Below the pieces are notes generated by a model. It saw nothing but the letters and a program-made list of their open reading frames with translations, did not search any database and was not told where the DNA came from. A stretch of DNA of 64,000 nucleotides from IMG/VR virus record IMGVR_UViG_3300012942_000033, positions 35,512-99,511 of that record. The stretch is one strand, 5' to 3'. Numbering within the stretch: the stretch's first letter is position 1; each line of letters starts with the position of its first letter. The stretch is from a virus. Taxonomy: Duplodnaviria; Heunggongvirae; Uroviricota; Caudoviricetes. Shown here one piece after another: positions 15,009 through 53,338 of the stretch. Both the position numbers and the translations under genes were made by a program.

Positions 15009-15379
15009 ATACCTTCCCCACAGCCTCTGATGCACGAGCAGGTTCTCGCAATAACATAGCGATCCATAACGAGATCCGAGCAATAGAATCGGATATCTAT
15101 AACGCCATTGCTCAGGGTAAGATGAACGCAGATGTCAAGGATAGCCCATTTACTGTGACACCGACCGAGGGTGCACCCGACTCAGATATCAACGCCTATG
15201 ACTATTACGGAGCTCTATTCCAGGATACGCCTGGAAGCTCTGATGTTGATCTACTCTACCGCTCACTCAAGGAGCAAATTGACATCGTTCAACAGAACTT
15301 CACCAGTCTAGGCTATCAAGTTCAACCCCTTCAGAATACTGATACGGGTAACACGTTCTTCTGGAGGATCTTATGGTAA
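15005..15379 (+). CDS. hypothetical protein
   Basis: ATGA overlap with the upstream gene. Confidence 0.5.
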   Translation: MNTFPTASDARAGSRNNIAIHNEIRAIESDIYNAIAQGKMNADVKDSPFTVTPTEGAPDSDINAYDYYGALFQDTPGSSDVDLLYRSLKEQIDIVQQNFTSLGYQVQPLQNTDTGNTFFWRILW

Positions 15380-16998
15380 TGGAATTACTCAAGATGCTCA
15401 ACGAGACTAAGCTTCATTCACGCACTCATTATGATGGCCTTGACATCAGTGTTGAGGTTCCTGCTAATGGTTATCGCCGTGGTATCAACAAGAAGACTGG
15501 TGAGGAATGGTCTTACAAGATTCCAGCCAGCTACGGTTACATCAAAGGCACGCATAGCCCTGATGGCGAACACTTGGATTGCTATCTGAGGAAGAACCCC
15601 AAGAAGGGCGCTCAGGTTTATGTCATGCACCAGTTGACACCTGATGGTTCTCGCTTTGATGAGGATAAGGTAATGCTTGGTTATTCAAGCAAGAGCGAAG
15701 CTATCAAAGCATTCAAGGGCATGACTTTCAAGCCGGGTACGATGTACGGCGGTTGTACTGAATTTGATATGGAGCACTTCCAGGTGATCGCATTCAGTGC
15801 CTCAAATAGTCACGCCATGTTGACTAAGAATGCCACCTATGATGAATTCAAACGCAAGGGCCTGCTACCCAGGAACATCAAGAGCCCACTCATGGTTGCT
15901 CGGAAGGTTTGTGAGGGTCTAGCAGAAGGTCTTAACGAGATTGGCCAGACTCTAAGTCGTGGTGATCTCGAAGAATGTCTAGATTGGTCAGGTTACCATG
16001 AAGGCAGTTCAATCGAAGCAGTTCTTACTCGTGCCTATGGTCATTACTCAGGCACACCGTACATGCATGACTTTGGAACCCTATCAGAGGAAGAGTTCAA
16101 AGCCAAAGTGCTCAACCATATCATGGAGCAGGATGCTCTTCTGACTGATACCGAGGATCATTATGGATTGGAAGAAGCTATCGAGGAACTTGAACCTATC
16201 AGTGAAGATATTGGTGATATTGAAAGCGGTGACCGACATTCACCTGATCTTGAAATCGAAGAAGTAACGGAGGAAGCCATGGAAGCCAATAACTTTGCCG
16301 TAGTGGTTCATACCCAGATGATGGAAAACATTGGCTCGGCCGAGAATCCAAGTTGGGCAACTGCTGGAACTAAGGTTCTGCTGGTTCAGGAGGGTTTTGC
16401 TACTTGGGGTGAGGCACGCTCGGTCGCTGCCAAGGTTGCTGCGGGGCAGATCTCCGTTGAGCTATCGGAGAATGCTCATGTGCTTGGTATTGATGTCATG
16501 CCAACTGCTGATTACCACTACCTACATGAAGAGGTAGTAGAAGATGAGCCAGTTGAAGAAGACATGACCGATGATGTCTTCTTCCAACAGCAGGTCATGG
16601 AGATGAAAGCAAAGGCTGGTATCCGTGATGGCTCCTATGAAAACCAGGGCACACCTAGCGTTCATGAAACTCGCGAACGTCTCGCTAAGTTGACCCAAGA
16701 CTTTTACAAGGGTCTGGAAGCTCAGGAGCTCGAGGAAGCTACTGCCAAGTTGAGTGATGGTAAGATTGCTCATGCTCTTCGAGTAGTCAAGGAGACGCTG
16801 AAGGCAAATCCACATGCCAATGTCAATCAGGCAATCAGAGCTGTTTGTAAGAGGCTCTTTGGTGATCCAAACCTCGATGAAGAAGTGATCAAATATGCCG
16901 AATTTGAATATGGCACTCTAGATGAGTTCGATGATCAGATCCGTGGTCGGAAGGCACCTGAGAAGATCTCAAGAGTTATCACCAAATACGAGAACTAA
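15373..16998 (+). CDS. hypothetical protein
   Basis: 541-aa ORF. Confidence 0.6.
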   Translation: MVMELLKMLNETKLHSRTHYDGLDISVEVPANGYRRGINKKTGEEWSYKIPASYGYIKGTHSPDGEHLDCYLRKNPKKGAQVYVMHQLTPDGSRFDEDKVMLGYSSKSEAIKAFKGMTFKPGTMYGGCTEFDMEHFQVIAFSASNSHAMLTKNATYDEFKRKGLLPRNIKSPLMVARKVCEGLAEGLNEIGQTLSRGDLEECLDWSGYHEGSSIEAVLTRAYGHYSGTPYMHDFGTLSEEEFKAKVLNHIMEQDALLTDTEDHYGLEEAIEELEPISEDIGDIESGDRHSPDLEIEEVTEEAMEANNFAVVVHTQMMENIGSAENPSWATAGTKVLLVQEGFATWGEARSVAAKVAAGQISVELSENAHVLGIDVMPTADYHYLHEEVVEDEPVEEDMTDDVFFQQQVMEMKAKAGIRDGSYENQGTPSVHETRERLAKLTQDFYKGLEAQELEEATAKLSDGKIAHALRVVKETLKANPHANVNQAIRAVCKRLFGDPNLDEEVIKYAEFEYGTLDEFDDQIRGRKAPEKISRVITKYEN

Positions 16999-24532: not shown

Positions 24533-25295
24533 TTCCAGCGATACAAGCGTTGTGCCTCCTGAGCTGAAGGAGCACGTTGATGCCTTCTTCGCCCTACCAA
24601 CCACAAACCCCTACTATGGAGTTTTGGTCAATCCAGCATCATGTCTAATCGATGACATCAGGAATAACTTCACTGATTTGAATCAAGCAGGGCAGGATCT
24701 TGATGCCGCCTCTGGTCAAACTGATTGGGCTGATTACCAGGATGAATACGACCAAGACACGCAGGATATCGCTTCGGATCTCGATTCGATCCAAGATCAC
24801 ACAGATCGCCTAACGAGCAATCTACCAAGCCTGGCAGGAGTAGCACAAGGCGCCCTAGCCCTCGCTACTGTGATGAACCTTTTGAGTAATCCGTGTCTTG
24901 GTCTGGATGGCATGTTGGGGAGTGTCATGGATTCAGGTAAGCAACTCCTCAATGATGTGGCTAATCAGGTTAAGGCTGGTATTGGTCAGATCACAAGTGC
25001 TATAGGAGATGTGACATCTGCAATCCAATCCGGAGTACAGAGTGCAATCACCGCTGCTAAGGCGGCTATTGGACCACTCATGGATCAGATCAAAGATGGT
25101 ATCGCGGTAGCCAAGCAACAGGTTAGTGCTTTCATTGATAAGGCAAAGACCGAGATCATGAACTTTGCCAAAGCGGCTTTGGCACAACTACGTCAAGGTT
25201 TGGCTGAATTGATGGCTAACCTACCACAAGATCCTTGTCTGCGTGGTCTCCTAACCAGCGCGGCAACTGGCGCGGCCGCAGCAATCATCAAATGA
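24456..25295 (+). CDS. hypothetical protein (Gln/Ala-rich helical, possibly structural)
   Basis: The long open frame begins at 24336. Internal ATGs at 24369 and 24456 are alternative starts. The C-terminal half is coiled-coil-like. Confidence 0.45.
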   Translation, partial: LQQIMQTTPRPAPSATQQNPPPPLINSSDTSVVPPELKEHVDAFFALPTTNPYYGVLVNPASCLIDDIRNNFTDLNQAGQDLDAASGQTDWADYQDEYDQDTQDIASDLDSIQDHTDRLTSNLPSLAGVAQGALALATVMNLLSNPCLGLDGMLGSVMDSGKQLLNDVANQVKAGIGQITSAIGDVTSAIQSGVQSAITAAKAAIGPLMDQIKDGIAVAKQQVSAFIDKAKTEIMNFAKAALAQLRQGLAELMANLPQDPCLRGLLTSAATGAAAAIIK

Positions 25296-26269
25296 CCAAA
25301 CCAGCAGTAAGAAAGGGTGATAAGTGTACGGGTCATGGCGACGCAAAGCCAAGACCTTGTGACCAGGGTTCACCTGATACTTTCATCAATGGTAAGGCAG
25401 CCCACCGCCAGGGTGACCATTGGGCAGTTCATAAAAATCATGACAGTCACCTCGCAAAAGGTTCTGATTGCGTCTTTGTGAATGGTAAGGGTCAGGGTAG
25501 GGTTGGTGATCCTATCCTTTGTGGAAGTCGGTGCCAACAAGGTAGCCCGAACGTCTTCGTAGGTGATAATTCGAGTAGTGGCGGATCAAGTCAGTCAGGC
25601 CAAGGAGCAGCTTCTGCACCAATTGATTACACCAACCCATACCGCTTTGAAGGTGGTGCTGGTGCGGATGGTTATTCGGGTTCAGGCACCATTGAGACTG
25701 AAGGCGGCGTTACTGGTGCTAGTGATTCCGATACACCAGCCTCTGATCCTGATTCACAGGAGCCACTAGACGCAAGTGATGATGACGTTGATTGGCTCAC
25801 CACGTGTATGATTGATGAGGCGGGTAATCAGAGCCAGAAGGATGCTTGGGCAGCGGTAGCCGCTGTGGTAGTAGATCGACTACAGACTGGTAGAGCGACC
25901 GGAACGGTTAATCCGGCCTGGCACGGAACTATCAAGGGTATCGTTCTAGCTAATGGTCAATTCTCGGGCTTCTACTTTGAGATGATCAACCGTCACTACA
26001 CTAGAGTCGTAGCAAGCAAGGATTGGGCGGCTGCTGAAAAACGTGGCAAACAGAAGATGGCACGATATCGTCAGCGTTCTCAATGGAATGCCTTCCATGA
26101 GGTGGCCCAACAGGTCGTCAATGGATCCTACCAGGGCGGTGCAGGCTGGAGATTAGTTAAGAGTCGCCCTGCGCTCATGTACTGTAATCTGGCCATCTCA
26201 AATCCGCCCTGGGCCACCCAGAGCAAATATGTCACTAAAATCGAGGATCACACCTTTTTCGTGGCTTGA
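25292..26269 (+). CDS. PAAR-like domain protein fused to a SleB-type cell-wall hydrolase
   Basis: N-terminus has PAAR/gp5.4-like Cys/His/Gly repeats (KGDKCTGHGD...GSPDTFINGKAAHRQGDHWAVH...VFVNGKGQGRVGDPILCGSRC...SPNVFVGDN). C-terminus has a SleB/Hydrolase_2-like segment (CMIDEAGNQS...VVVDRL...GIVLANGQFSGF). ATGA overlap with the upstream gene. Confidence 0.6.
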   Translation: MTKPAVRKGDKCTGHGDAKPRPCDQGSPDTFINGKAAHRQGDHWAVHKNHDSHLAKGSDCVFVNGKGQGRVGDPILCGSRCQQGSPNVFVGDNSSSGGSSQSGQGAASAPIDYTNPYRFEGGAGADGYSGSGTIETEGGVTGASDSDTPASDPDSQEPLDASDDDVDWLTTCMIDEAGNQSQKDAWAAVAAVVVDRLQTGRATGTVNPAWHGTIKGIVLANGQFSGFYFEMINRHYTRVVASKDWAAAEKRGKQKMARYRQRSQWNAFHEVAQQVVNGSYQGGAGWRLVKSRPALMYCNLAISNPPWATQSKYVTKIEDHTFFVA

Positions 26270-26294
26270 CATCTTGGTGTCACGTTGCTATATA
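26266..26294 (+). promoter_or_regulatory. sigma70-type promoter driving the tmRNA gene
   Basis: TTGACA (26266-26271), a 17-nt spacer, then TATATA (26289-26294). This places the transcription start near 26301, just ahead of the tmRNA acceptor piece. Confidence 0.55.
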
Positions 26295-26300
26295 GGATGG

Positions 26301-26760
26301 GCTATTGAAGACCGACGCCAAGTATCGACTAGCGGACGCGGGGGCAGTACCCGCCAGGTCCACCATAGCAAGTGACCTAGGAGCACTCGGAGCAATCCGG
26401 GCGGCGCCAACACCACCGAGGGAATCGAAGGATCTCAACCGGATCTGGGTCTTGAGGATGGTATGAGGAAGGGTGGATGAAAGTGAGGCACCGCGGAAGG
26501 CCTCATGAGTAAGGTAAGTCACTTGCTTTGCTGGGCCTGAACTTAGGATCGACGTGGAAGAGAACGGCCGAGAGAAGATCCGGGAAACCGGTGAAGCGAT
26601 GGTAGGGGTGGCACCCTGGGGAAACCCGCAAAGCCACGCATGTAAATGCAAACGACAACACTGTCGAGGTCGCTCTCGCCGCTTAATTGTGGCGCGGGTA
26701 ACCGCCTAAAGTCTTAGGGCTTCGACTCCTTAAGCGCGGTATGGTTCCACCGGGCAACAG
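26301..26760 (+). ncRNA. ssrA: circularly permuted (two-piece) tmRNA gene (ssrA); acceptor piece precedes coding piece
   Basis: The acceptor 3' end GGACGCGGGGGCAGUACCCGCCAGGUCCACCA (CCA at 26363-26365) matches the E. coli tmRNA 3' end GGACGCGGGUUCAACUCCCGCCAGCUCCACCA. Downstream, GGGCCUGAACUUAGGAUCGACGUGG (from 26533) matches the tmRNA 5' end GGGGCUGAUUCUGGAUUCGACGGG. The tag frame GCA AAC GAC AAC ACT GTC GAG GTC GCT CTC GCC GCT TAA (26648-26686) encodes ANDNTVEVALAA followed by stop. The 3' boundary is approximate. Confidence 0.8.
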
Positions 26761-26827
26761 AAAGGGCCAACCTTCCTATTACTCTTGACCTATTGGTAAA
26801 CTCCATTATTCTGCCGGGTAATGGGGT

Positions 26828-28615
26828 ATGTGGATAGATCAGGGAGACCACAGAAACCTTTATAACGGGTCGCATCCAAGGCTTACATCTCCGGAGCGGG
26901 GGTTTGCTATGTCGGATGAGCCAGTTAATTTTTCATGGATTGACCAAGCGTTGGTCTATGATCAAGACAAAGAGGAACGAGTGGATAAAGCAATCAAATC
27001 CGACATCAACATCAAGATGCTTACCGAACTCGCTCCTACTATCATATGGACGCGGAATCCTAAGTGGGATTTGACCTATATCAACTCATTCTGGTTTGAA
27101 TTCACTGGATGTCAGGATAGGCCAGTCAGTGAGATTGATTGGCAGGTCTTCATCCATCCTGATGATCTACCTACCATTACAGCTTATTGGAAGACCGCTC
27201 TTGAGCTCAACTTGGAGTTCAAGGTTGATTTTCGCCTTCGCCGCCGAGACGGTGAATATAGGTGGTTCCAATCAGTAAGCCGGCCAGTCACCAACAAAGC
27301 CGGTGAAGTCATTCAGTGGCTCGGTGTTTCGTCGATCATCCAAGACCTCAAAGAGGCACAGGAGGAGACCGAACGTCTTCGTCAGGAACTTGAGGAGAAA
27401 GTTCTCCAAAGAACCCAGGCCCTTGAGGAAGCACAGGCACAGGTTCTAGCCGAAATAAGCGCACGTCAGGCCACCCAGGATGCTCTTCGTCAAGCTCAGA
27501 AGATGGAGAGCGTGGGCCAATTAACTGGTGGCATTGCGCATGATTTCAACAACATGCTCACGGTGATCATTGGTAACCTTGAGTTACTCAAAATGAGTGC
27601 GCCCAAGTTGGGGGATAATCCAGTCGCGAAACGCATGGAACGCAATGTCAGTATGGCGATCGAAGCCTCGATTAAAGCCGAGAAGCTTACTGCTCAGTTG
27701 CTAGCGTTCTCGAGAAAAGCCCGTCTTCAGCTTGAACGTCTTGATGCCAATGCGGTCGTTGTTGGTGTCAGAGAAATGGTTGAACGAGCTGTTGGTATCG
27801 CTGTTAGTTGTGAGATCGACATACAGGATGATCTCTGGCTTTGCCTTTCGGATAAGACCCAGCTCGAGAGCGCAATCATTAACCTGGCTATCAATGCTCG
27901 CGATGCAATGCCTCTGGGTGGTAAGTTGTGTATCTCCACGGCCAACAAGGAAGTTGGTGATCTACGCTTCGTTAGTGTTTCGGTCAGCGATACCGGTCAG
28001 GGTATGAACCTAGAAACCCTGGAGAAGGCTTGCGAACCATTCTTCACCACCAAGGACGTTGGTAAGGGAAGCGGTCTTGGGCTCTCGATGGTTTATGGAT
28101 TCTGCCAGCAAAGCAATGGCAAGTTGATTCTTGAGAGCGAGGAAGGCCATGGCACTACTGTTGAAATGCTCTTCCCCTATACGGCTGGCGAAACCATTGA
28201 GGCCACCCAAGCGGAGGAAGACTTCAACTTTGATGCCAACAAACAAAGCATCCTAGTTGTTGATGATGAACCAGCGGTCAGAGAATTAGCGTGTCAGCTA
28301 TTGACTGATGCGGGGTTCAATGTCGTTAGCGCTCAAGATGGTCAGACGGCCATCAATATAGTCAAAGACCTCACCATACCACTCGACCTTCTATTCACTG
28401 ATATCGTGATGCCAGGCGGCATTGACGGATTTAGTCTAGCCAAGGTGGCCAATCAGGTACGCCCCACTCTACCTGTTATCTTTACGACTGGCCACGCGGA
28501 AGTTGCCCTCAAGGAATTGAGGAAGGATCTGTCGCAGAAGCTCAAAGTCATCGGCAAACCTTACCGGTTGAACGAGTTGAAGCAAATGATCCTTCATGAA
28601 CTGGCTATCCAGTAA
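26828..28615 (+). CDS. hybrid sensor histidine kinase (PAS, HisKA, HATPase_c and C-terminal receiver)
   Basis: PAS-like N-terminus. H-box [20 protein letters not shown]-boxes DTGQGMN and [14 protein letters not shown]. Receiver domain [12 protein letters not shown]...[14 protein letters not shown]...TTGH. The true start may be the downstream ATG (MSDEPVNF). Confidence 0.8.
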
Positions 28616-28672
28616 TATTGATTTCAGGTAGCTGATCAGTTAGTAGATGGGTTCTACCAAACAAAAGGAAGA

Positions 28673-28861
28673 GTGGTCGTGAGTGTATGGAACCTACGGG
28701 CTGATCCCCAGTCTACAGAAATCATCGAAACGTGGCTCAAGGAAGAAGCCATCGAAGGCTATGTGATCAATGTAAAGCCCGAGGTTGTTCAAATTGACTT
28801 CTCGAGCATTGACGATGCGTTCCGCTTCCGCCTTCAATTTGATGAAGTGCTGGTCGATTGA
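28673..28861 (+). CDS. small hypothetical protein
   Basis: 62-aa ORF followed by a hairpin. Confidence 0.3.
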   Translation: MVVSVWNLRADPQSTEIIETWLKEEAIEGYVINVKPEVVQIDFSSIDDAFRFRLQFDEVLVD

Positions 28862-28871
28862 CCACAATGTG

Positions 28872-28899
28872 TGGGCTGGAATGATTCCAGCCCATATTT
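28872..28899 (+). terminator. terminator-like hairpin
   Basis: TGGGCTGGAA-TGA-TTCCAGCCCA followed by TATTTC. Confidence 0.45.
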
Positions 28900-29088
28900 C
28901 AAAGGCTTACAGCTTTGTGTAGCGACGCCAAAGTCTAGACTAGACTGGCGTCGTAATCTTCAATAGCTTGTGCGAACTACGTGTAACGCGCGTTGTGCAA
29001 TTTAGTTGCACAGGGCGTCTAAGTTTTTATGGAGCCACATAGCCCTAAGTCGTCACAGAGATCGATTCCTCAAGTTGCGTAGGTTACC

Positions 29089-29613
29089 ATGAGCCTGAAT
29101 GACTTTAAGACTGCGACGACCCTGATGAAGGCTATGGAAGAAGGTCCCCAATATGTAAGAGTTACTGCTGGATCACGCATTGGGACTATAGGTAGGGTGA
29201 TGATCATACGCACCAAATACTACAGCGCTCATGAGTATCAGCTAGCTGTCAAAGGCCGCCGTAGTTTTTGGATGAAAGGTAGTGACCTAGAGCACCTTCC
29301 AAACCATCGTGGCGGCACCCATTATGTCGTGAACCATGAGACGCCAACGTATAATGACCTAATGGGTCGTCGTATCGAGGTAGGCCAAACAATCCTCTTC
29401 CCCCGAGGCTGCGAAGGAGCAAGGGTGGATATGGTCATGGGCACAGTTCGCAGGATCAGCAATAAGGGCACCATCTACGCCAAACTCTTCAAGAGTGGCC
29501 ACAGTAACGATCTGGCTGGTAGGTTGGTCAGGGTTGGCAAGCCAGGCAGCGCTATGATAATCGATAAGGGAACCACCGACCAAGTGATGCTAGCCAAGTT
29601 GGCTGCGTTCTAA
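29089..29613 (+). CDS. hypothetical protein
   Basis: 174-aa ORF. Confidence 0.5.
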   Translation: MSLNDFKTATTLMKAMEEGPQYVRVTAGSRIGTIGRVMIIRTKYYSAHEYQLAVKGRRSFWMKGSDLEHLPNHRGGTHYVVNHETPTYNDLMGRRIEVGQTILFPRGCEGARVDMVMGTVRRISNKGTIYAKLFKSGHSNDLAGRLVRVGKPGSAMIIDKGTTDQVMLAKLAAF

Positions 29614-29625
29614 GAAAGGGAGTCT

Positions 29626-30000
29626 ATGTCGAATGGTCGTATTCTTCTAGTTGAGGATGAGCCAATGCTCCATTTCCTCTGGGAGGATATATGCGCGATC
29701 AACGATTTCGAAGTTGCCTTCACGGCCATGACCTGCCAGGAGGCGCTGGCTTACCTGGAAGAGAATAGTGATGACCTCTCGGGTGTTATCCTTGATGTGA
29801 ACCTACACGGTGAGATGTCTAATAGGGTAGCCGCCTATCTTAGAACCCTTGCCTTGCCAGTGGTAGTATCAACGGGTAGTCATCCAGATACGCTACCTCT
29901 GGAATTCAAGGGATGGCCCACACTTTGTAAACCTTACCGCCCTCACGACATTGTGAGCATTTTGCCAACCCTGGCTTTTAGCAAGCAGACAGTTAGGTAA
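29626..30000 (+). CDS. stand-alone response-regulator receiver (CheY-like) domain protein
   Basis: ILLVEDEP acidic pocket, VILDVNLHG with a candidate phospho-acceptor Asp, and VVVSTGSH. 124 aa with no output domain. Confidence 0.5.
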   Translation: MSNGRILLVEDEPMLHFLWEDICAINDFEVAFTAMTCQEALAYLEENSDDLSGVILDVNLHGEMSNRVAAYLRTLALPVVVSTGSHPDTLPLEFKGWPTLCKPYRPHDIVSILPTLAFSKQTVR

Positions 30001-30151: not shown

Positions 30152-30454
30152 ATGGTAGACGATCTATTTCAGTGGCCTCGACCCCAAACAACCGTGGTGA
30201 ACCTCAAAGAGGAACACTATGATGTTCGTATTGATCGTAAGACCAAATGGGGCAATCCATTCGTCGTTGGCCGTGACGGCACTCGCGAGGAATGTATCCA
30301 ACAATTCGCCGATTGGGTTGTGGAGCAATCTCACCTAATGGAAGCGTTGCATGAACTCAAAGGTAAACGTCTGGGTTGTTGGTGTCACCCCCAAGCATGT
30401 CATGGTAACGTGCTTGCCAAACTTGCAGATGCGAGCAGACCTCCTACCAAATAA
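30152..30454 (+). CDS. DUF4326-like protein
   Basis: WGNPF...GKRLGCWCHPQACHG pattern recalled from the DUF4326 family. Confidence 0.45.
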   Translation: MVDDLFQWPRPQTTVVNLKEEHYDVRIDRKTKWGNPFVVGRDGTREECIQQFADWVVEQSHLMEALHELKGKRLGCWCHPQACHGNVLAKLADASRPPTK

Positions 30455-30464
30455 GATTTGACAG

Positions 30465-31127
30465 GTGACTCACCGTTCGCTTAGAGCGGTTCACATGGAT
30501 TTCATGGCCTTCCTCACCGCAACGCAGAATCTGGCTTTCCTTATTGCTGGCATTCTCGTAGCAGCAATCTTCGTCGTCGAGTTCCTAGGAACTATGATCG
30601 GGTTCTCCTTAAGTCATCTAGGACCTGACTTCCACATTGACCTAGATCATGATGGCACACCTGATCACCTTGAGGGTGCGGGCCTTATGGCTTGGCTCAA
30701 TCCTGGTGGCGTGCCGTTTATGATCTTCCTCACGTTGGGGACCACTATCTTCGCGATAGTGGGTTATGCGATTCAGGCTGTGAGTTGGTCTAACACCGCT
30801 TACCTTCTGCCTGGATTGGTCATTTGGCCAATTTCATTCCTATTGACGCTCATATGCGTTCGACCTTGGACCCGCTGGATCAACCGGGTTCTACCAAGGG
30901 AAGAAAGTAGCGATGTCAGCCTTAGCAGCCTTGTTGGTGAGTCTGGCGTAGTGACTGTGGGCCCTGTAACCAAAGAGCAATTTGGTTTCATCAGGGTTCG
31001 CGACAAGTTTGGCACTGATCATTCGATCCAGGTCGCAGCAAACAATGATGAGGTGTTTGCGATTGGTGCCGAAGTTCAACTAGTCGGACCTCACCCTACT
31101 AACCTGTATGCGTATCTAATCCGCTAA
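30465..31127 (+). CDS. NfeD-like membrane protein (partner of the SPFH/flotillin protein)
   Basis: Several N-terminal transmembrane helices. C-terminal OB-fold-like segment (GESGVVTVGPVTKEQFGFIRVRDKFGTDHSIQVAANNDEVFAIGAEVQLVG). Lies directly upstream of the flotillin gene, as in NfeD–SPFH operons. Confidence 0.6.
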   Translation: MTHRSLRAVHMDFMAFLTATQNLAFLIAGILVAAIFVVEFLGTMIGFSLSHLGPDFHIDLDHDGTPDHLEGAGLMAWLNPGGVPFMIFLTLGTTIFAIVGYAIQAVSWSNTAYLLPGLVIWPISFLLTLICVRPWTRWINRVLPREESSDVSLSSLVGESGVVTVGPVTKEQFGFIRVRDKFGTDHSIQVAANNDEVFAIGAEVQLVGPHPTNLYAYLIR

Positions 31128-31139
31128 CTGGAGAAAACC

Positions 31140-32876
31140 ATGTCTATCAAGTTCATTGGCTTGCTAGTCGGGCTGGCGGTCGTAGGATTCCTGATCCTCG
31201 GCATGATCATCACCCGGCTATATAAGCGAGCTTCCAAAGAGACTGCCTTCGTTCGCACCGGTATGGGCGGCCAGAAGGTGATCAAGGATGGCGGTGCGCT
31301 CGTCATTCCAGTCGTTCATGAAACCCTCGATATCAATATGCAGACCCTTCGTCTGTCGGTAAATCGCGGTGGTCAGAACGATTCGCTTATCACAAAGGAT
31401 CGCTTGCGCGTTGACGTGAATGCTGAATTCTACGTTCGGGTTGCTCCAGATACGGAGAGCATTGCTACGGCGGCTCAGACGCTTGGTCGGCGAACAATGG
31501 ATCCTAGCCAGCTAAGCACCCTCGTTGAGGGCAAGTTCGTTGACGCCCTGCGCGCTGCCGCTGCTTCGATGGATATGCAGGATCTGCATGAGAAGCGCAC
31601 CGAGTTCGTTCAGAAGGTCAAGACGACTGTTGCGGAGGATCTGAAGCAGAACGGTCTTGAACTTGAGTCGGTCTCGCTGACCAACTTGAACCAGACTGAC
31701 ATCAGTCACTTTGACGCCAACAACGCCTTCGACGCCGAGGGTCTTGCGGTCATTGCCAAGGTCACTAGTGCGCGCCGCAAGGAGCGCAATGACATCGAGA
31801 AGCAGACCGAGGTCGAAATCGAGACCAAAAATCTCGAGTCAACCAAGCGCACCTTGGAGCTCAAGCAAGAGGGTGAATTTGCTCGCCTGGATCAGGAGAA
31901 GCAGGTTCAGACTCGTGCGGCAGAGCAGGAATCGCAGCTTGCTATCGCTCGTGCGGAACGTGAACGTGAGGCGGCTGTCGCTGCTGAAGCGGCGAAGCAG
32001 GCGTCGGAACAGGCTCGTATTGAGCGTGAACGTGGCGTGAAGGTGTCTCAGACGGAAGCTGACCAGGCCACTGAACTGGCGGCTCAGGCCTCGCGTATTG
32101 CGGTTGCGGAGAAGTCAGAGGCAGAATCCAAGGCGAAGGCCAAGGCTGATGAGGCGCGAGCCGAAGCAACCAAGGCTGCTGAAAACGTGACGACCGTTTC
32201 GGCCACCGCACGAGCTGATCGTGAGGCGCAGATTGCGGTTATCGCTGCCGAGGGTGAAGCGAAGCAGAAAGCCGCGAGCATCACGGTTCAGGCCGAGGCT
32301 GAGCTCAAGGCTGCTGATTCACAGGCCAAGGCCAAGGAACGTCTCATCGAGGCTGACGCCAAGCGTTACGAGGTCGAATCCACGGGTCAGCGTTCGCTCC
32401 ATGAGGCTGGCAACGTGATCAGCCCCGAGAGCATGAACTTCCAGCTTCGGAAGGCCATGGTCGAGCGTCTGCCTGAGATCATCGAATCGATGACTAAGCC
32501 CATCGAGAAGATTGACAGCTTCCGTGTCGTTCATATGAACGGAGGCCTCAACATGGGCCATGGTGCTGCCAATGACGGCGCACCGGCTCTCGATAAGGGT
32601 AGCCTGTCGAATCAGATGACTGACGCTCTGCTGAACTATCGTATGCAGGTGCCATTCGTCGACGCGCTGGGCAAGGAACTCGGTATCGATTTCACTCAGG
32701 GCATGAATGGCATGGTGACTTCGGCGGGTCTCCCCGTTGAGGTTTCGGATCTGCCGGAAGAGCCCAAGCCCTCGATTCCGACCGAAGCACCTCGGTCTGC
32801 CACTACTCGTGAAGCCCCGCTGGCTCCTGAGGATAAGGCAGAGATCCAGAAGCTTGCTGGGATCGCCAACGGCTGA
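31140..32876 (+). CDS. flotillin-like SPFH/band-7 protein (FloT/YqiK-like)
   Basis: N-terminal transmembrane helix plus SPFH core, then a long Ala/Glu/Lys/Arg-rich coiled coil (EREAAVAAEAAKQASEQARIERE...). Confidence 0.8.
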   Translation: MSIKFIGLLVGLAVVGFLILGMIITRLYKRASKETAFVRTGMGGQKVIKDGGALVIPVVHETLDINMQTLRLSVNRGGQNDSLITKDRLRVDVNAEFYVRVAPDTESIATAAQTLGRRTMDPSQLSTLVEGKFVDALRAAAASMDMQDLHEKRTEFVQKVKTTVAEDLKQNGLELESVSLTNLNQTDISHFDANNAFDAEGLAVIAKVTSARRKERNDIEKQTEVEIETKNLESTKRTLELKQEGEFARLDQEKQVQTRAAEQESQLAIARAEREREAAVAAEAAKQASEQARIERERGVKVSQTEADQATELAAQASRIAVAEKSEAESKAKAKADEARAEATKAAENVTTVSATARADREAQIAVIAAEGEAKQKAASITVQAEAELKAADSQAKAKERLIEADAKRYEVESTGQRSLHEAGNVISPESMNFQLRKAMVERLPEIIESMTKPIEKIDSFRVVHMNGGLNMGHGAANDGAPALDKGSLSNQMTDALLNYRMQVPFVDALGKELGIDFTQGMNGMVTSAGLPVEVSDLPEEPKPSIPTEAPRSATTREAPLAPEDKAEIQKLAGIANG

Positions 32877-32906
32877 TCCTACCCTAGCAGGGCTTTGTAG
32901 GGAGGG

Positions 32907-33647
32907 GTGGCAGAAGTGCCACCCCTTTCCTATCTGAGTCTTTCTGTTGTAGACATTTCGGTAGCGAGCGCTAATACTGACTCTGACATGAGGAATAGCA
33001 TGACATTACGTATCGGAGGCATCGCAGCTTTGTGTGGTGCAGTTTGTGTCTTTGTGGGTGGTATGGCTGCGTTCCCCTTACATCTTATCGGTGACCTCAT
33101 GGTCAGCACTCCACTATCTGTGGCAACGGGTGTGGGTATTTGGTATTTCTGGCCTGGCCGCAAACCAGCCAATGATATCGAGACTCTGCTGAACGATCAG
33201 GAACTCCTCAAGAATGCGACCGGTCTGAGTAAGCGAGACATCGTCGAGACAATCAGGCTAGTAAGTGATAAGTTGGATCGCATCCTCATGAGTGCTGCTC
33301 AGATAAATGAGCCTAAGGTCACACGTCGTATCCAACATCTTGATGCGATTGGTCGGAAGATCATCGACGAGTTCAGGGTGCGACCCATTGGAATCCAGAG
33401 GTCACAAACATGGATCCATGCCTACTTGGATCAAGCCATTGAGTGCGTCGACCAATATGCTCAATTACATGGATCGAAGATCCGCAATGACGAGGTGCGA
33501 CGTCAGATGGTAGAGTTTGACGATATGTTGGTCGAACTCCAGGAGAAGTCGCAGGAATTGCTTGATCTGCTACTGACCCATGATACGACGACCTTCGATG
33601 TCAATGTTTCAGTATTTCGTGATATGATGAAGAACGAGGGAATCTAA
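32907..33647 (+). CDS. membrane protein (possibly XpaC-like); start likely downstream at MRNSMTLRIGG
   Basis: Two N-terminal transmembrane segments then a helical domain. Its position directly upstream of a TelA-like gene mirrors the Bacillus xpaC–yaaN pair. Confidence 0.35.
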   Translation: MAEVPPLSYLSLSVVDISVASANTDSDMRNSMTLRIGGIAALCGAVCVFVGGMAAFPLHLIGDLMVSTPLSVATGVGIWYFWPGRKPANDIETLLNDQELLKNATGLSKRDIVETIRLVSDKLDRILMSAAQINEPKVTRRIQHLDAIGRKIIDEFRVRPIGIQRSQTWIHAYLDQAIECVDQYAQLHGSKIRNDEVRRQMVEFDDMLVELQEKSQELLDLLLTHDTTTFDVNVSVFRDMMKNEGI

Positions 33648-34810
33648 TGACCGAGGCAACTATGACGCAGACCACCCTACCAGCTCTGACTCCTGAGGCA
33701 TCTCAGGTCTTGGATTCAACCTCGCTGGTTAGTTTGGCGCCGGCAGGCTCAGCGATTCAGATCACGAGTGTTTCTGAAGAGCGAGCCAAGGAGTTGGCTC
33801 AGAAGATCAACATCCACGACACACAGAGCATTATCGGCTTCGGTGTTGAAGCCCAGAAGGGTGTGACCCAGCTGAGTGAACAGATGCTTGAGGGTGTGCG
33901 AACCAAGGATACTGGCCCGGCTGGTGAAGCCCTCAACCTTATGGTTCATGAGATGCGTGGGCTGGATTTCAGCAAGCTCACATCCAAGCAAGGTTTGGTG
34001 GCGAGGATCCTCCACAAGGCCAGCAAGGTCACGCTATTCCTCGAGCAGTATGAAACGGTTCAATCGAAGATCAACAAGACCCAAGCGGTTCTTGATAGTC
34101 ACCGTATCCAGATGCTTCGTGGAGTGAAGGTGCTTGATCTGCTCTACAAGAAGACCCTCGAACTCCTGTATAACCTGGATGAGCAGATCGCAGCCGTTCA
34201 ATATAAACTCAACGAGGTCAACGCTAAGGATATCCCCGAGGCAAATGAGAAGGCCCAGCAGACCAAGGATATGGCTGACACCCAAGCGGCTGCTGATTTG
34301 ATCCAAGCTCGTGATGCCTTGGAGCGAAAGCTTCATGATCTACAGCTGAACCGCCAGATCACCATCCAGGCCCTACCTAGCATTCGTATCGTTCAATCCA
34401 ACGAAGTCGGTCTTTCGGAGAAGATCCAAGGCCAGATCCTCAACGCTTTGCCTCTTTGGAAGCGTAATATCGCACTAGCAGTCGAAATGGCGAAGACGCA
34501 GAATGCTGCCAAGGCCACCAAAGCAGCTAGTGATTTTACCAATGAACAGCTTCGTATTGGTGCGCAGATGCTTCAGCAATCCAACCTAGCGGTTCGAACT
34601 GAAATCGAGCGCGGTATGGTTGACATTGACAGCGTCAAGTTTGCCAACGATCAGTTGATCCAGACTATTGAGGATACGATCACGATCGCTCAGGAGGGTA
34701 AGAATATGCGAGCCCAGGCGGAACAGGAGCTCGCCCAGGCCGAGCAGAAGCTCAAGGAAACGCTTCTGAGCGCTGCTAATCGACAGGCGAATATGAAGGC
34801 TCTCGCGTAA
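33647..34810 (+). CDS. TelA-like (toxic anion resistance) family protein
   Basis: 387 aa, helical, with TelA-like conserved segments (IGFGVEAQKGVTQLSEQML, LNLMVHEMRGLDFSKL). ATGA overlap with the upstream gene. Confidence 0.55.
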   Translation: MTEATMTQTTLPALTPEASQVLDSTSLVSLAPAGSAIQITSVSEERAKELAQKINIHDTQSIIGFGVEAQKGVTQLSEQMLEGVRTKDTGPAGEALNLMVHEMRGLDFSKLTSKQGLVARILHKASKVTLFLEQYETVQSKINKTQAVLDSHRIQMLRGVKVLDLLYKKTLELLYNLDEQIAAVQYKLNEVNAKDIPEANEKAQQTKDMADTQAAADLIQARDALERKLHDLQLNRQITIQALPSIRIVQSNEVGLSEKIQGQILNALPLWKRNIALAVEMAKTQNAAKATKAASDFTNEQLRIGAQMLQQSNLAVRTEIERGMVDIDSVKFANDQLIQTIEDTITIAQEGKNMRAQAEQELAQAEQKLKETLLSAANRQANMKALA

Positions 34811-35259
34811 TGCGAAAAGCCACCCTTATCCTGGGTTGGTTGTGTCTTATCGGCGCGGTGGAGGGGCCAGGGCTCATAGCTAGCCCACCTGATAAGTTTG
34901 GATCACACGTAATCCAAATCGATCACGTCTATGATGGTGATACCTTCTACTTCAGGATGCCCGGTGCTTGGTCAGAGATCAGCATGGTAGGTGTTAGGGT
35001 GTTGGGTATTGACGCTCCTGAGAAGCGTGGTCGATGCCCTGCTGAACGCGCCTTGGCAAAAGAAGCCACTATTATGGCTCAACGCTTCTTAAGCCGTGGC
35101 CCGGTCACATTACAGCACGTTCGTTGGGACAAATACGGTGGTAGGATTGAGGCTGATGTTCTGGTTGACGGTCAGAGCCTCTCCGAGTATATGATCGACC
35201 AGAAGATGGCTCGACCCTATATGGGTGGTCATCGAGACAAAATGGAGTGGTGTCGTTGA
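34810..35259 (+). CDS. thermonuclease (staphylococcal nuclease-like) with an N-terminal signal or transmembrane segment
   Basis: SNase motifs GDTFYF and VRVLGIDAPE plus conserved Arg residues; hydrophobic N-terminus. Confidence 0.7.
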   Translation: MRKATLILGWLCLIGAVEGPGLIASPPDKFGSHVIQIDHVYDGDTFYFRMPGAWSEISMVGVRVLGIDAPEKRGRCPAERALAKEATIMAQRFLSRGPVTLQHVRWDKYGGRIEADVLVDGQSLSEYMIDQKMARPYMGGHRDKMEWCR

Positions 35260-35762
35260 CTGAGCAGTTTACTCTTTTCTACGGTGGGCCGGCAAGCCAA
35301 TGGTATGCCAGTGAGTTCACTGTTGATGGAGTGACCTACAACACCGCTGAGCAATACATGATGGCGCAGAAAGCCATCCTTTTTGATGATGCCGATGCCC
35401 TAGACATCATCATGAATACCGATAATCCGAAGATCCAGAAAGCCGCAGGTCGCCAGGTTCGAGGTTTCGATAAGGCACTCTGGGAGCAGAACGCCAAACT
35501 CTTCGTCTACCGCGCCAATTTCGCCAAGTTCACTCAGAACGCCGACCTTTTGGAATGGCTCATAGCAACTGTCGGTACAGCCCTTGTAGAAGCAAGCCCC
35601 TGGGACACCATCTGGGGGATAGGATTGGCAGCTAGTGATCCTCGAGCGCTAGATCGAAAGACCTGGAAGGGCACTAACTGGCTCGGTGAGATTATTACCA
35701 AGGTGCGCGCTGACATCATTGCGATGTCGATGATTCTCTTGGAACACCCGTTGGTATCCTAA
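35247..35762 (+). CDS. NADAR domain protein (YbiA/RibX-like N-glycosidase)
   Basis: FYGGPASQWYASEF..DGVTYNTAEQYMMAQKA...FTQN...LLAT...LVEASPWDTIWGIG aligns with E. coli YbiA. Confidence 0.7.
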   Translation: MVSLTEQFTLFYGGPASQWYASEFTVDGVTYNTAEQYMMAQKAILFDDADALDIIMNTDNPKIQKAAGRQVRGFDKALWEQNAKLFVYRANFAKFTQNADLLEWLIATVGTALVEASPWDTIWGIGLAASDPRALDRKTWKGTNWLGEIITKVRADIIAMSMILLEHPLVS

Positions 35763-40470: not shown

Positions 40471-41055
40471 ATGGATCGAATTACTACAGGTGAGCCTTAC
40501 GGTAAGTTGATTCATCGCCATGTCAGTCGTAAATGGCAGACACCTGAACTCAAGGAATGGTGGTATTCAAAGTTCACTATGAGCCTGCGCAAGAAACTAG
40601 CCAAACTACATCATCGCCAGAATGGTCTTTGTATCTTCTGTGGCTGTGAAACCTGGCTCGCCATTGAGGGCGTAAAGAAACAGAACCCACCACCTGGAAT
40701 GCTATTAAAACAAATGGCTACTGCGGATCACAAGATTCCTCAGAGTCTCGGTGGCACTAACCGGATGACCAACCTGGCCATGGCGTGTATCCGTTGTAAC
40801 AATGATCGACAGACCACGCCATTTGAGGAATTTCTTGAAGTTCGTCAGGATCCAGTGAAATGGAAGGCTCGCAATCGTAAGCTCACCGCCAAGTATCAAC
40901 AGAATGCGGCCAAGCGTAAGAAGAATTCAGAGGCTCGCCGTAATGCTTTGGTCTGGAAGCTGGCGGTGTTATTCTACCTTCGGCCCGATCTTATACCAAC
41001 CGAAGAAGATATGGCAAGAGAATACGAACGACGAGCACGATACCGACGCCGATAA
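40471..41055 (+). CDS. HNH endonuclease
   Basis: CIFCGC...ADHKIPQSLGG...NLAMACIRCNNDRQ matches the HNH motif with a zinc-binding Cys pair. Confidence 0.7.
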   Translation: MDRITTGEPYGKLIHRHVSRKWQTPELKEWWYSKFTMSLRKKLAKLHHRQNGLCIFCGCETWLAIEGVKKQNPPPGMLLKQMATADHKIPQSLGGTNRMTNLAMACIRCNNDRQTTPFEEFLEVRQDPVKWKARNRKLTAKYQQNAAKRKKNSEARRNALVWKLAVLFYLRPDLIPTEEDMAREYERRARYRRR

Positions 41056-41056
41056 C

Positions 41057-41117
41057 TGGTTGACACTCACCAGTCTGGTGCTAGATCTAGCCTTGAGACA
41101 ACAAGGAGATCGACGTG
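41057..41117 (+). promoter_or_regulatory. conserved promoter/leader cassette (second copy)
   Basis: TGGTTGACAC...ACAAGGAGATCGAC-GTG. The -10-like element is weaker here (GGTGCT). Confidence 0.35.
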
Positions 41118-42242
41118 CTGAATAAGCTGATGACACCGGAGACGAAGAAGCTGAGCAAGGCCTTTGACATGGCCGGCTTCGAAATCCGTTTCGTCGGCGG
41201 CTGCGTTCGGGACGTTCTGCTGGGTGTTGAACCCAAGGATGTGGATTTCTGCACTGACGCCACTCCTGACGAGATGCGCGATATCGCGGTAATCAACAAG
41301 TTCAAGTTCCTGCCCACTGGCATCGATCACGGCACCGCAACCATCGTAGTTGATGGTGAGCCCTTTGAGGTCACCACCCTGCGCGTTGATGCGGAGACTG
41401 ATGGTCGTCATGCCAAGGTCGAGTTCACCAGGGATTTTGAACTGGATGCCGAGAGGCGTGACCTGACCATCAACGCAATGTCGATGGATACAAAGGGCAA
41501 TCTCTTCGACTATTTCGGTGGCCAGGAGGATCTGAAGAACAAGGTCGTGCGGTTCGTCGGTGATGCGAAGACGCGCATCGAGGAGGATTACCTGCGTATC
41601 CTGCGTTACTTCCGTTTCGCGGCTCGGTTCGATGCACAGATGGATCAGGAGACGCTGGATATCTTCAGCGATCCTGAAGTGCTGGCTGGTCTGAATCGAG
41701 TTAGTGTTGAGCGGTTCTGGTTGGAGATGTCAAAGCTGCTGACCTATAGCGCTCGGGTGCGAGTCATGGAGGCTATCTTTGGCACTGGCGTCAATGCTTC
41801 GTTGAATCTGTTTCGGTTCGAGCCCAATGAGCTGAGCCGGGCCGATGATGCGGTGGCCGCATTGGCAACGCTGATCTCGAGCGACGACGAGGAGCGGTTC
41901 TTCCAAATCTGGAAGATGAGCTCTCCGGAGGAGGCAAAGGTTCGCAACATGATCCGTAACCGCGGTGGGTTCCTGGATGAAGTGCGCGTTGAGGTCATGC
42001 TGACCCGCGATAAGTTCCCCAGGGATCACGTGGTGAGCCTGGCTCTGGTCGCCAGTGAGCCCACGCTGGCTCAACATGCTAGGGATTTTGTTGTTCCGAC
42101 CTTCCCCATTACGGGTAAGGATCTGATGGGTGTTGGTATGGCTCCAGGCCCACAGATGGGTCAGCGCCTGCGTCGGATGGAAGCAGCCTGGGTTGATAGC
42201 CGGTGGAACCTGGCCAAGGAAGCCCTGATGGAGATCGAGTAA
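41115..42242 (+). CDS. CCA-adding tRNA nucleotidyltransferase / poly(A) polymerase family protein
   Basis: Class II nucleotidyltransferase head motifs: FVGGCVRDVLLG, DVDFCTDATPDE, GIDHGTATIV, RRDLTINAMS. GTG start. Confidence 0.8.
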   Translation: MLNKLMTPETKKLSKAFDMAGFEIRFVGGCVRDVLLGVEPKDVDFCTDATPDEMRDIAVINKFKFLPTGIDHGTATIVVDGEPFEVTTLRVDAETDGRHAKVEFTRDFELDAERRDLTINAMSMDTKGNLFDYFGGQEDLKNKVVRFVGDAKTRIEEDYLRILRYFRFAARFDAQMDQETLDIFSDPEVLAGLNRVSVERFWLEMSKLLTYSARVRVMEAIFGTGVNASLNLFRFEPNELSRADDAVAALATLISSDDEERFFQIWKMSSPEEAKVRNMIRNRGGFLDEVRVEVMLTRDKFPRDHVVSLALVASEPTLAQHARDFVVPTFPITGKDLMGVGMAPGPQMGQRLRRMEAAWVDSRWNLAKEALMEIE

Positions 42243-45885: not shown

Positions 45886-46431
45886 CTATCTACCGCCGGG
45901 TAGACTCGCAAACACATGGGCTCCGATACGGATCTTATTAACTAAGCGTTGGGTCCAAGAAAACTTCAACCGTGCCTGGTAGAAGAACGTAGAACCATCC
46001 GTAGGGTCATTCACTTTCTCCCCACTAATGAGTAAGACCGCTTTGCGTTGGCTTTCGAGCCATGCTGCCTTCTCATGTGGAATTTGTGCTCTCAATGGCC
46101 ACCTAGTCCAAGAAAATTGCCCTGGAGACCACACGACATCGCATACAGTATTGGCATTGAATGCGTCATGGTGAGTTCTGTTTAGGGTAACAAATCCAAC
46201 TGCCCATTGATCTCGAGAAGTTCCTCCTCGGATCTCATGATAGATGTTGAGTGCCATACACAACATCTGATCCTGATCGGTCGGGTCGGCTTGCTCAATT
46301 TGTGGGTCTATATCCCCTTGAGCCCTGACCGCACTGAGTAGCGCTTGGTATCTAGGTAGTGTCTCCGCTGCGGCTTGGTTGGGCGTTAGCCATAGAGACA
46401 TGAGGAGCACCAATGCTCCTAAAAATTTCAA
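45886..46431 (-). CDS. secreted SleB-type cell-wall hydrolase (candidate endolysin or spanin-region lysin)
   Basis: N-terminal signal peptide (MKFLGALVLLMSLWLTPNQAAA). Hydrolase_2-like core (ALNIYHEIRGG...AVGFVTLNRT...VCDVVWSPGQFSW). Confidence 0.6.
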   Translation of the reverse strand: MKFLGALVLLMSLWLTPNQAAAETLPRYQALLSAVRAQGDIDPQIEQADPTDQDQMLCMALNIYHEIRGGTSRDQWAVGFVTLNRTHHDAFNANTVCDVVWSPGQFSWTRWPLRAQIPHEKAAWLESQRKAVLLISGEKVNDPTDGSTFFYQARLKFSWTQRLVNKIRIGAHVFASLPGGR

Positions 46432-53330: not shown

Positions 53331-53338
53331 TTACCTAC

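Follow-up and report, generated by a model that had tools for sequence, protein, structure and literature searches.

A hybrid histidine kinase and an SdrG/MrrA-like receiver inherited together in a clade of jumbo phages

Introduction

Why would a bacteriophage carry both a sensor histidine kinase and a receiver domain, and what could it do with them? The question is raised by a 64,000-nucleotide stretch of viral DNA (IMG/VR record IMGVR_UViG_3300012942_000033, positions 35,512 to 99,511), here called the window, in which the gene for a hybrid sensor histidine kinase is followed, two genes downstream, by the gene for a stand-alone receiver. Coordinates without an L prefix are positions in the window (1-64,000). 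Together with the called genes ~10 kb past each end of the window, ~85 kb of a genome of roughly 470 kb was inspected. Comparison with related loci shows that a clade of jumbo phages of roughly 470 kb gained a PAS-containing hybrid kinase once and, separately, an SdrG/MrrA-like receiver. Both genes, which flank an older gene (p174), have been retained under purifying selection with their predicted catalytic residues intact. We put the probability that the pair works as a functional kinase-to-receiver couple during infection at a little over one half (roughly 0.55).

Phages manipulate host two-component systems via small inhibitor proteins and sense signals through peptide or quorum-sensing receptors. 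Hybrid kinases are carried by Ectocarpus virus EsV-1, which infects a eukaryote. We found no vertically inherited, catalytically intact phage histidine kinase with a receiver described in the jumbo-phage literature that we searched. A survey of 224 jumbo-phage genomes mentions histidine kinases only as never being linked to the cRec domain and describes no kinase-based two-component system (PMC7824862). Neither a paper on a new lineage of large aquatic phages nor the description of Sinorhizobium phage AP-J-162 (PMC11242549) mentions kinases or response regulators.

A soluble hybrid kinase with conserved catalytic residues

The kinase gene occupies 26909-28615 (+) and encodes a soluble protein of 568 aa. 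The longest open reading frame (ORF) at this position, 26828-28615 (+), corresponds to 595 aa; public gene calls use the internal ATG at 26909, which gives the 568-aa form (P0001 is 100% identical). Residue numbers given here follow the 568-aa form and the spans of Pfam domains follow the 595-aa form. Pfam identifies PAS_3 (residues 83-167, E 7.9e-15), HisKA (230-297, E 1.7e-7, 31.6 bits against a cut-off of 26.9), HATPase_c (342-451, E 1.4e-17) and a fused receiver, Response_reg (475-588, E 9.4e-19). The order is thus PAS_3, a coiled linker, HisKA/DHp, HATPase_c and fused receiver. The phospho-acceptor histidine is predicted to be H211 (codon 27539-27541), within the H-box GGIAHDFNN. The N, G1, F and G2 boxes are all present, including the sequence GKGSGLGL. 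The fused receiver has D452/D453, the phospho-acceptor aspartate D498 (codon 28400-28402), T527 and K550. All of these residues and boxes are invariant or nearly so in 27 kinase orthologues.

By domain content and by its residues the protein is a HisKA-type (class I) hybrid kinase, for which catalysis is predicted. It has no hydrophobic segment (the maximum Kyte-Doolittle mean over 19 residues is 1.28) and would therefore be cytoplasmic. A sequence-only reading of the window had proposed a hybrid kinase with PAS, HisKA H-box, HATPase and receiver parts, and Pfam supports each of these assignments. The catalytic histidine and aspartate, on whose conservation that reading depended, are kept: H211 and D498 across 27 kinases, and D57 of the stand-alone receiver across 12 receivers.

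The top solved relative of the catalytic core is the DHp-CA core of Caulobacter CckA (5idj, E 5.7e-36). Another top match, to the receiver (6tne_A, E 2.8e-15), is deposited under the bare title 'Histidine kinase' and is probably a CckA receiver. In NCBIfam the generic hybrid-kinase subfamily PRK13557 ranks first, with 385 bits against a cut-off of 631 and an alignment to profile positions 143-529 of 540, its non-LOV part. PRK13557 comprises LOV-type hybrid histidine kinases of Pseudomonas and Xanthomonas. It is the top model for the DHp-CA-receiver part of the phage protein, and has the same overall length and sensor-HisKA-HATPase-receiver layout, but the phage kinase has PAS_3 in place of LOV. 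With a score under the subfamily cut-off and a PAS_3 that lacks the flavin-cysteine motif (NCRFLQ), the kinase does not belong to the LOV type. Nor does it qualify as a CckA: the equivalogs NF046020 and NF046026 give 296 and 252 bits against cut-offs of 1000. The fused receiver scores 79 bits with the CpdR model, whose cut-off is 180. Among the 120 best database relatives, all of them orphan hybrid kinases of multi-PAS or GAF type, the name CckA does not occur. Judged from these comparisons, the kinase sits in a large family of hybrid kinases with the HDFNN H-box and is not a CckA. In a search with defence models (PADLOC) the fused receiver matched PD-T4-6 weakly (23 bits) and the other nine proteins matched nothing, which indicates no membership of a defence system.

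A stand-alone receiver of SdrG/MrrA type

The second gene, at 29626-30000 (+), encodes a single-domain receiver of 124 aa, and its presence two genes past the kinase bears out the sequence-only reading. Its match to Pfam Response_reg is marginal (E 4.2e-7, 30.6 bits against a cut-off of 30.2). Its whole length aligns with the solved receivers SdrG (5ieb, E 1e-12) and Sma0114 (2lpm, E 4.5e-12), its top two solved relatives, and we place it in the SdrG/MrrA (FATGUY-like) type. The three proteins have the DVNL context of the phospho-acceptor in common, and all lack an aromatic switch residue. With SdrG, from Sphingomonas melonis, the phage protein also has in common the beta4 pattern P-x-x-x-[AS]-T-G; identity is 36% over 113 aa, compared with 25% to the fused receiver of the kinase. 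Its origin as a duplicate of the fused receiver was rejected on these values.

The functional positions are E10/D11/E12, the phospho-acceptor aspartate D57 (codon 29794-29796), T83 and K102. Across 12 orthologues D57, the KP pair that contains K102, D11 and E12 are invariant; E10 is replaced by D in one, and the S/T-G step is kept. T99, three positions before K102, stands where an aromatic switch residue would be, and the position is non-aromatic in 11 of the 12. The orthologues have the beta4 motif P-[VT]-[VIL]-[VL]-[SCT]-[TS]-G-[SHYD]. The protein thus has the features of a REC/CheY-like domain and is predicted to be phosphorylated. It gave no match to CpdR in NCBIfam at E <= 1e-3. The idea that it might be a CpdR-like adaptor of ClpX, prompted by the ClpX gene of the phage, was abandoned on this result. 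A tblastn search of 50,697 phage records with the receiver returned no match.

The window belongs to a group of jumbo phages

Among the genes that PHROG and Pfam identify in the window are those for primase, a DnaB-like helicase, class Ia ribonucleotide reductase (RNR), structural proteins of the virion, an Mtd_N tail-fibre-like protein and a fusion of PAAR with a hydrolase; neither a major capsid gene nor a terminase gene was recognised within it. One structural protein, of 650 aa, aligns over 90% of its length with a protein of Sinorhizobium phage Phosso (469 kb) at 37% identity, and also matches proteins of Atu_ph07, PA5oct and the large jumbo phages of E. coli. The window and the cultured Phosso are collinear, with part of the common block inverted in Phosso. 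Around p174 the two have in common Mtd_N, a PAAR protein, DUF7217, an Sm-like protein, a two-piece transfer-messenger RNA (tmRNA) of alpha type, p174 itself, YqiJ, SPFH/flotillin, an XpaC-like protein and TelA. No GenBank phage was matched when 20 kb were searched by megablast. The contigs of the closest relatives measure 468 kb and 481 kb, matching the sizes of Phosso and AP-J-162, and three related contigs are recorded as viral genomes in IMG/VR. AP-J-162 is a lytic phage of 471.5 kb with 47% GC and one tmRNA (PMC11242549). On gene content and collinearity the window belongs to a jumbo phage of the Phosso / AP-J-162 / Atu_ph07 group (~470-490 kb). The sequence-only reading had called the phage virulent, but the window itself does not show its lifestyle.

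The tmRNA lies at 26262-26777 (+), directly upstream of the kinase. It is a two-piece (permuted) alphaproteobacterial-type molecule (ARAGORN; Rfam RF01849 at 98.8 bits and RF04321 at 70.3 bits) whose tag peptide is ANDNTVEVALAA, ending in LAA. It is kept in L001, L002, L003, L006, L008 and L009 of the related loci, at L016:4152-4841 (-) and in Phosso, and was not found in L004. The host is probably alphaproteobacterial, because the tmRNA is of this type and both the cultured relatives of the phage and the nearest homologues of the kinase point the same way. The tmRNA is context and a clue to the host, not a component of signalling. A bacterial chromosome with a prophage at ssrA, in which the kinase would be a host gene, was considered and rejected, given the co-directional phage-like genes on both sides, the tmRNA inside phage contigs and Phosso, and the uniform base composition.

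Kinase and receiver are inherited together

Ten related loci were inspected. Eight of them extend beyond the receiver position (L001, L002, L003, L004, L006 and L008-L010); L005 duplicates the arrangement of L004, and L019, which shows the RNR-to-kinase part only, ends just after the kinase. Kinase and receiver occur together in all eight loci that reach past the receiver position, on contigs of 44-481 kb. In each the gene order is RNR, Grx, (tmRNA), kinase, p62, p174, receiver, (tRNA), DUF4326, YqiJ, flotillin, XpaC, TelA, a staphylococcal-nuclease-like protein (SNase) and NADAR, with a tmRNA hit in seven of them. The order from tmRNA to TelA recurs in at least nine metagenomic contigs, the longest of 481 kb. 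Compared with the window, the loci are 80-97% identical in RNR, 46-88% in the kinase, 45-93% in p174 and 38-76% in the receiver, and the divergence of the locus parallels that of neighbouring core genes.

A search of a large protein database gave 29 clusters of kinase orthologues, at 44-100% identity. In a neighbour-joining tree built from the DHp-CA-receiver core, where they were compared with 90 bacterial or metagenomic relatives and three kinases from contigs L011 and L013, these phage clusters group together as a single clade in all 50 of 50 bootstraps. P0029, too, adjoins the phage RNR genes. Between the window and L008 the ratio of nonsynonymous to synonymous substitution rates (dN/dS) is 0.046 for the kinase, 0.031 for p174 and 0.03-0.04 for the two RNR subunits; for the receiver it is not computable, with dS saturated and dN = 0.17.

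The sensor region varies on a constant core. The kinase of the window has one PAS_3 domain, that of L003 (763 aa) has GAF+PAS and that of L004 (721 aa) has three PAS domains. Such variation is usual in sensor kinases when diversifying pressure acts on the input.

LOV-type hybrid kinases with the NCRFLQ motif and a near-identical H-box are encoded at L011:9569-11158, L013:9632-11161 and L013:12674-14731, on IMG/VR contigs of 499.6 kb (L011) and 416.7 kb (L013). From their sequence they are candidate blue-light sensor kinases on phages. L011 has two further genes in common with the window; L013, in which the neighbours resemble PEP-CTERM proteins, is possibly bacterial. Both contigs were left out as evidence, their viral nature being uncertain.

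The module was assembled around an older gene

Phosso carries the tmRNA, a small ORF, p174, YqiJ, SPFH, XpaC and TelA, and lacks the kinase, the receiver and DUF4326. The tblastn matches of the kinase include no phage of Sinorhizobium or Agrobacterium. Since Phosso has the tmRNA and the p174-to-TelA block without either signalling gene, the kinase and the receiver are additions specific to the clade of the window. The p174 gene and the membrane block are therefore taken as ancestral; the kinase entered between the tmRNA and p174, and the receiver on the other side of p174, before YqiJ. Capture of a ready-made kinase-receiver operon was rejected, as the two bacterial homologues examined are orphan kinases with no small receiver alongside.

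Two genes separate kinase and receiver. The small conserved ORF p62 (28673-28861, +) matches no Pfam family and is found at the same position in L001, L002, L006 and L008-L010 at 40-82% identity. It has no histidine in the window and so cannot be a histidine phosphotransfer (HPt) protein. p174 (174 aa; 29089-29613, +) is modelled by AlphaFold2 (predicted local distance difference test score, pLDDT, 80) as two SH3/KOW/Tudor-like beta-barrels with N- and C-terminal helices. A fold so rich in beta structure is, on this model, not that of an HPt. The stop codon of p174 lies 12 nt ahead of the receiver start codon, and p174 is a candidate partner of the receiver. It was rejected as a piece of an acquired signalling cassette, since Phosso carries it beside YqiJ, SPFH and TelA without kinase or receiver.

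Pfam Hpt/HPTransfase domains were searched for in the window ORFs judged coding, in intergenic ORFs of at least 50 aa and in the called genes ~10 kb past each end. None was found, and the same scan gave no further HisKA or receiver domain. A self-contained four-step relay is disfavoured because no HPt was found in the window or its flanks. The sequence-only reading had described a complete signalling set, which overstates what is present: there is no HPt in the scanned ORFs and flanks, and the receiver has no output domain.

A proposed kinase-to-receiver couple and its alternatives

We propose that the pair forms a direct phosphotransfer couple. The PAS input would sense an intracellular cue during infection, an input that sister phages have swapped for GAF+PAS or three PAS domains. 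The kinase would then autophosphorylate at H211, and the phosphoryl group would pass directly from H211 to D57 of the stand-alone receiver, with D498 of the fused receiver serving as a competing or regulatory acceptor. As the receiver has no output domain, it must act either via phosphoryl exchange or by binding a partner. In the former case it may exchange phosphoryl groups with host phosphotransferases of HWE/HisKA2 type (PhyK, LovK, PhyT) and so tune the PhyR/sigma-EcfG general stress response; in the latter it may bind a protein such as p174 or one from the adjacent YqiJ-flotillin-XpaC-TelA block. Because FATGUY receivers act as promiscuous hubs, exchange with host HWE/HisKA2 proteins is the most specific prediction. 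As the specific output, the host general stress response is a tentative proposal to which we give a low probability. Equally speculative is the fuller picture of a lytic jumbo phage that takes decisions during infection: a PAS-gated kinase would read metabolic or redox state, and an MrrA/SdrG mimic would add or withdraw phosphate in the HWE/HisKA2-PhyR relay, switching the stress response, and possibly the flotillin/TelA module, on or off in favour of phage replication. That the pair senses host physiology, or intercepts or mimics a host phosphorelay, as the sequence-only reading had suggested, is plausible. Interception becomes more concrete, though not proven, because the nearest solved relatives of the receiver, SdrG and Sma0114, belong to the promiscuous phosphotransfer hub group of the alphaproteobacteria.

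Several observations weigh against a functional couple of this kind. Kinase and receiver are not adjacent, p62 and p174 lying between them; they look like separate insertions and need not be cognate. Neither of the two bacterial homologues examined, one from Caulobacter flavus and one from a Sphingomonas species, has a single-domain receiver beside it; both are orphan hybrid kinases. The alpha-1 region of the stand-alone receiver is unlike that of the fused receiver. The FATGUY motif, defined as PFxFATG(G/Y) at beta4-alpha4 (PMC5964349), is only partly kept: the window has PVVVSTGS, in which both Phe are replaced by aliphatic residues and P, T/S and G remain. The phage kinase is of HisKA type, while most known donors of SdrG and MrrA are HWE or HisKA2 kinases. 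An HPt could sit in the remaining ~400 kb of the genome, and the assignment of the host is itself indirect.

One alternative is a phosphate sink or decoy. The receiver, alone or with phosphatase activity from the kinase, would drain host stress kinases and shut down the general stress response during infection, much as LovK/LovR drains MrrA~P in Caulobacter. The receiver is SdrG/MrrA-like and has no output domain, FATGUY receivers take phosphate promiscuously from many kinases, and LovK-LovR is itself a sink (PMC5964349). Yet a pure sink needs no phage kinase with a fully conserved apparatus for ATP binding and autophosphorylation, and we regard this explanation as unlikely. The kinase might instead act alone as a mimic of CckA, its fused receiver passing phosphate to the host HPt ChpT and so controlling CtrA and CpdR (the cell cycle and ClpXP proteolysis), with the stand-alone receiver unrelated or a sink. 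CckA is the top solved core (5idj, E 5.7e-36) and supplies the top named NCBIfam equivalogs, the fused receiver reaches 79 bits with the CpdR model, the phage encodes ClpX and, just beyond the window, ClpS, and a hybrid kinase with no phage HPt in the examined region fits the use of a host HPt. Set against this, the equivalog scores (296 and 252 bits) lie under cut-offs of 1000 and PRK13557 scores higher (385), the kinase lacks transmembrane segments and differs in the architecture of its sensor, the name CckA is absent from the 120 best relatives, and the HDFNN H-box is common to the whole large family. Such a mimic would also leave unexplained the constant presence of an SdrG-like receiver beside the kinase. 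We think it quite improbable.

Other readings detach the receiver from the kinase or both from the phage. The small receiver might be no two-component protein but a cRec-type phosphoesterase that works with NAD+/ADP-ribose-related neighbours, here DUF4326 and NADAR, as Iyer et al. 2021 (PMC7824862) proposed for jumbo phages; the proximity of the kinase would then be coincidental. DUF4326 does follow close behind the receiver in most loci, SNase and NADAR lie 5 kb downstream, both cRec domains and DUF4326 have been described in jumbo phages (PMC7824862), and the Pfam Response_reg score of the receiver is barely over the cut-off. But cRec domains, divergent receivers that process cyclic phosphates, are defined as never associated with histidine kinases and as linked to NAD+/ADP-ribose or RNA-repair enzymes (PMC7824862), whereas here a kinase is always two genes upstream. 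The receiver also aligns end-to-end with SdrG and Sma0114, with 36% identity to SdrG and the beta4 motif in common, and in L003 receiver and DUF4326 are separated by ~3.8 kb with a tRNA and two genes. This role is very improbable. The two genes could, finally, be passengers taken from a host, with no role in the phage, or the contig could be bacterial or plasmid. Jumbo phages do contain many host-derived genes, and the IMG/VR 'viral' contigs L011 and L013, with related kinases, may not be phages. Gene order is nevertheless kept at 46-88% kinase identity, the dN/dS of the kinase is 0.046 and the catalytic motifs are all retained; the window is, moreover, collinear with a cultured 469-kb phage, and replication and virion genes flank the locus. 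We give this explanation hardly any weight. The functional couple set out above, with a probability a little over one half, is the reading that we carry forward.

Relation to known systems

The nearest precedent is from Caulobacter, where CC2874, a classical HisKA kinase that ends in a receiver, phosphorylates MrrA, a FATGUY receiver, directly and without needing its own receiver; MrrA then passes phosphate to PhyK/LovK and on to PhyR (PMC5964349). As in the phage, a HisKA kinase with a C-terminal receiver stands beside a FATGUY-type receiver with no output domain, the inputs are PAS or GAF domains and the setting is alphaproteobacterial. The phage genes differ in being viral and in keeping the FATGUY motif only in part, and no PhyK, LovK or PhyR was seen in the examined region of the phage; the likeness is one of domain layout. 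The Sphingomonas relay of Pak, SdrG, PhyT and PhyR is a second precedent (PMC5898713). Here the receiver is the point of likeness, and the kinases differ, Pak being HWE/HisKA2 and the phage kinase HisKA; no PhyT-like phosphotransferase is encoded nearby in the phage. With the CckA-ChpT-CtrA/CpdR pathway the phage has in common a hybrid kinase with the HDFNN H-box, of which CckA is the closest solved core, and a fused receiver resembling the CpdR type. It differs in scores under the CckA cut-offs, in the lack of transmembrane segments, in the sensor, in the absence of ChpT and in a stand-alone receiver that does not match CpdR.

The sequence-only reading had described a histidine kinase as unusual in a phage, and this agrees with a tblastn search of the 50,697 phage records, in which nothing exceeded 60% identity and the listed matches were at 23-30%. 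Many of these look bacterial or mis-filed (Salmonella strain assemblies, and contigs with glnL/glnG or atoS/atoC). Those that resemble real phages are Microcystis phage MaAM05 (sasA), two 735-kb uncultured phages (LR756501 and LR756503) and Burkholderia phage vB_E427. The kinases of MaAM05 and of LR756501/LR756503 are 26% identical over ~40% of the protein, and have no known conserved partner receiver or clade-wide inheritance. The proteins described here are themselves ordinary members of known superfamilies. What is new is that a virus deploys the pair, that a phage clade inherits it while the input domain is swapped, and that a phage combines a hybrid HisKA kinase with a FATGUY-like receiver.

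Should the pair be active, these phages would own a sensor of intracellular state. Swapping of the input domain within the clade would imply selection on what is sensed. The hub-type kinship of the receiver suggests a concrete route by which a virus may seize a host stress response and, were the host-relay reading true, no sensory phosphorelay encoded by a virus would have been shown before to rewire a stress sigma-factor pathway of bacteria. The module is small and soluble, should be easily expressed, and may mark a still uncultured sub-clade of Phosso-like jumbo phages.

Neighbouring genes

Downstream of the receiver lies a block, identified by Pfam and by synteny across related loci, of DUF4326, YqiJ/NfeD-like, flotillin (SPFH), XpaC-like (PF10112) and TelA genes (30152-34810, +). 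Within it the YqiJ/NfeD-like protein, a 578-aa flotillin (SPFH + Flot), the XpaC-like protein and TelA (30465-34810, +) form a conserved membrane-associated set that is also found in Phosso. For TelA of jumbo phages a role in superinfection exclusion or xenobiotic tolerance has been proposed (PMC7824862). The YqiJ-to-TelA block is a possible target or functional neighbour of the receiver. DUF4326 (30152-30454, +), the staphylococcal-nuclease-like protein (34810-35259, +) and the NADAR protein (35247-35762, +) place NAD+/ADP-ribose-related functions, which have been discussed for jumbo phages, beside the signalling genes.

A tRNA gene stands right after the receiver in four relatives (L001:13158-13229, L002:13192-13263, L003:14692-14763 and L006:13193-13265). 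ARAGORN found no tRNA gene in the window, only the tmRNA. Scans for promoters and terminators around the locus gave no excess of sites over shuffled sequence.

A PAS-only protein elsewhere in the window

The sequence-only reading had also pointed to a 553-aa protein with about four PAS repeats and no output domain. Such a protein is indeed encoded, at 7715-9376 (-), and consists of four PAS domains (PAS_9, E 3.7e-43; TIGR00229, E 1.4e-53), with no output or other domain found in Pfam or NCBIfam. IMG/VR contigs that carry the kinase also carry orthologues of this protein, at 92% and 70% identity, and full-length relatives extend down to 31% identity. Its resemblance to the PAS domain of the kinase is marginal (23% identity, E 3e-4). 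Its inclusion in the kinase set is not supported: it lies 17.5 kb away on the opposite strand, and the only tie is that both are conserved in the same phage contigs. A link between the two is conjecture. The second PAS domain is LOV-like but has NLRDIL where NCRFLQ would be expected, and thus lacks the flavin-binding cysteine; a role as photoreceptor was rejected on this ground.

Other features of the window

Several host-like functions are encoded besides. A full-length ClpX (59362-60618, +; 590 bits against a cut-off of 359), IF3 (60619-61197, +) and a protein with the L7/L12 C-terminal domain (47194-47646, +) lie in the window, with ribosomal protein S21 and ClpS just beyond its end (L020:15044-15307 and L020:17898-18191). 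Together with the tmRNA, these look like a takeover set for translation quality control and proteolysis. A CCA-adding/poly(A) polymerase family enzyme (41115-42242, +), an HNH endonuclease (40471-41055, +), a PTPS/QueD-like enzyme (45133-45810, +) and an S-adenosylmethionine decarboxylase (57546-57932, +) are also host-like. In L004 the gene for the RNR large subunit is interrupted by an insertion with a weak intein-splicing signal (L004:1190-4986).

One protein (25235-26269, +) fuses PAAR motifs to a cell-wall hydrolase (Hydrolase_2), of which relatives keep the PAAR part only; the fusion suggests a needle-tip lysin. A separate stand-alone Hydrolase_2 protein is encoded at 45886-46431 (-). 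A 541-aa protein (15373-16998, +) has an N-terminal InPase (inorganic pyrophosphatase-like) domain; in PHROGs this domain resembles parts of giant phage virion, DarB-like and minor-head proteins. A type II topoisomerase, likewise host-like, is encoded with both of its subunits (49271-50620, -, and 55027-56898, -), and between their genes lie about a dozen small ORFs of 60-140 aa with no family matches (51257-54048, -), which have the typical look of an early-gene cluster.

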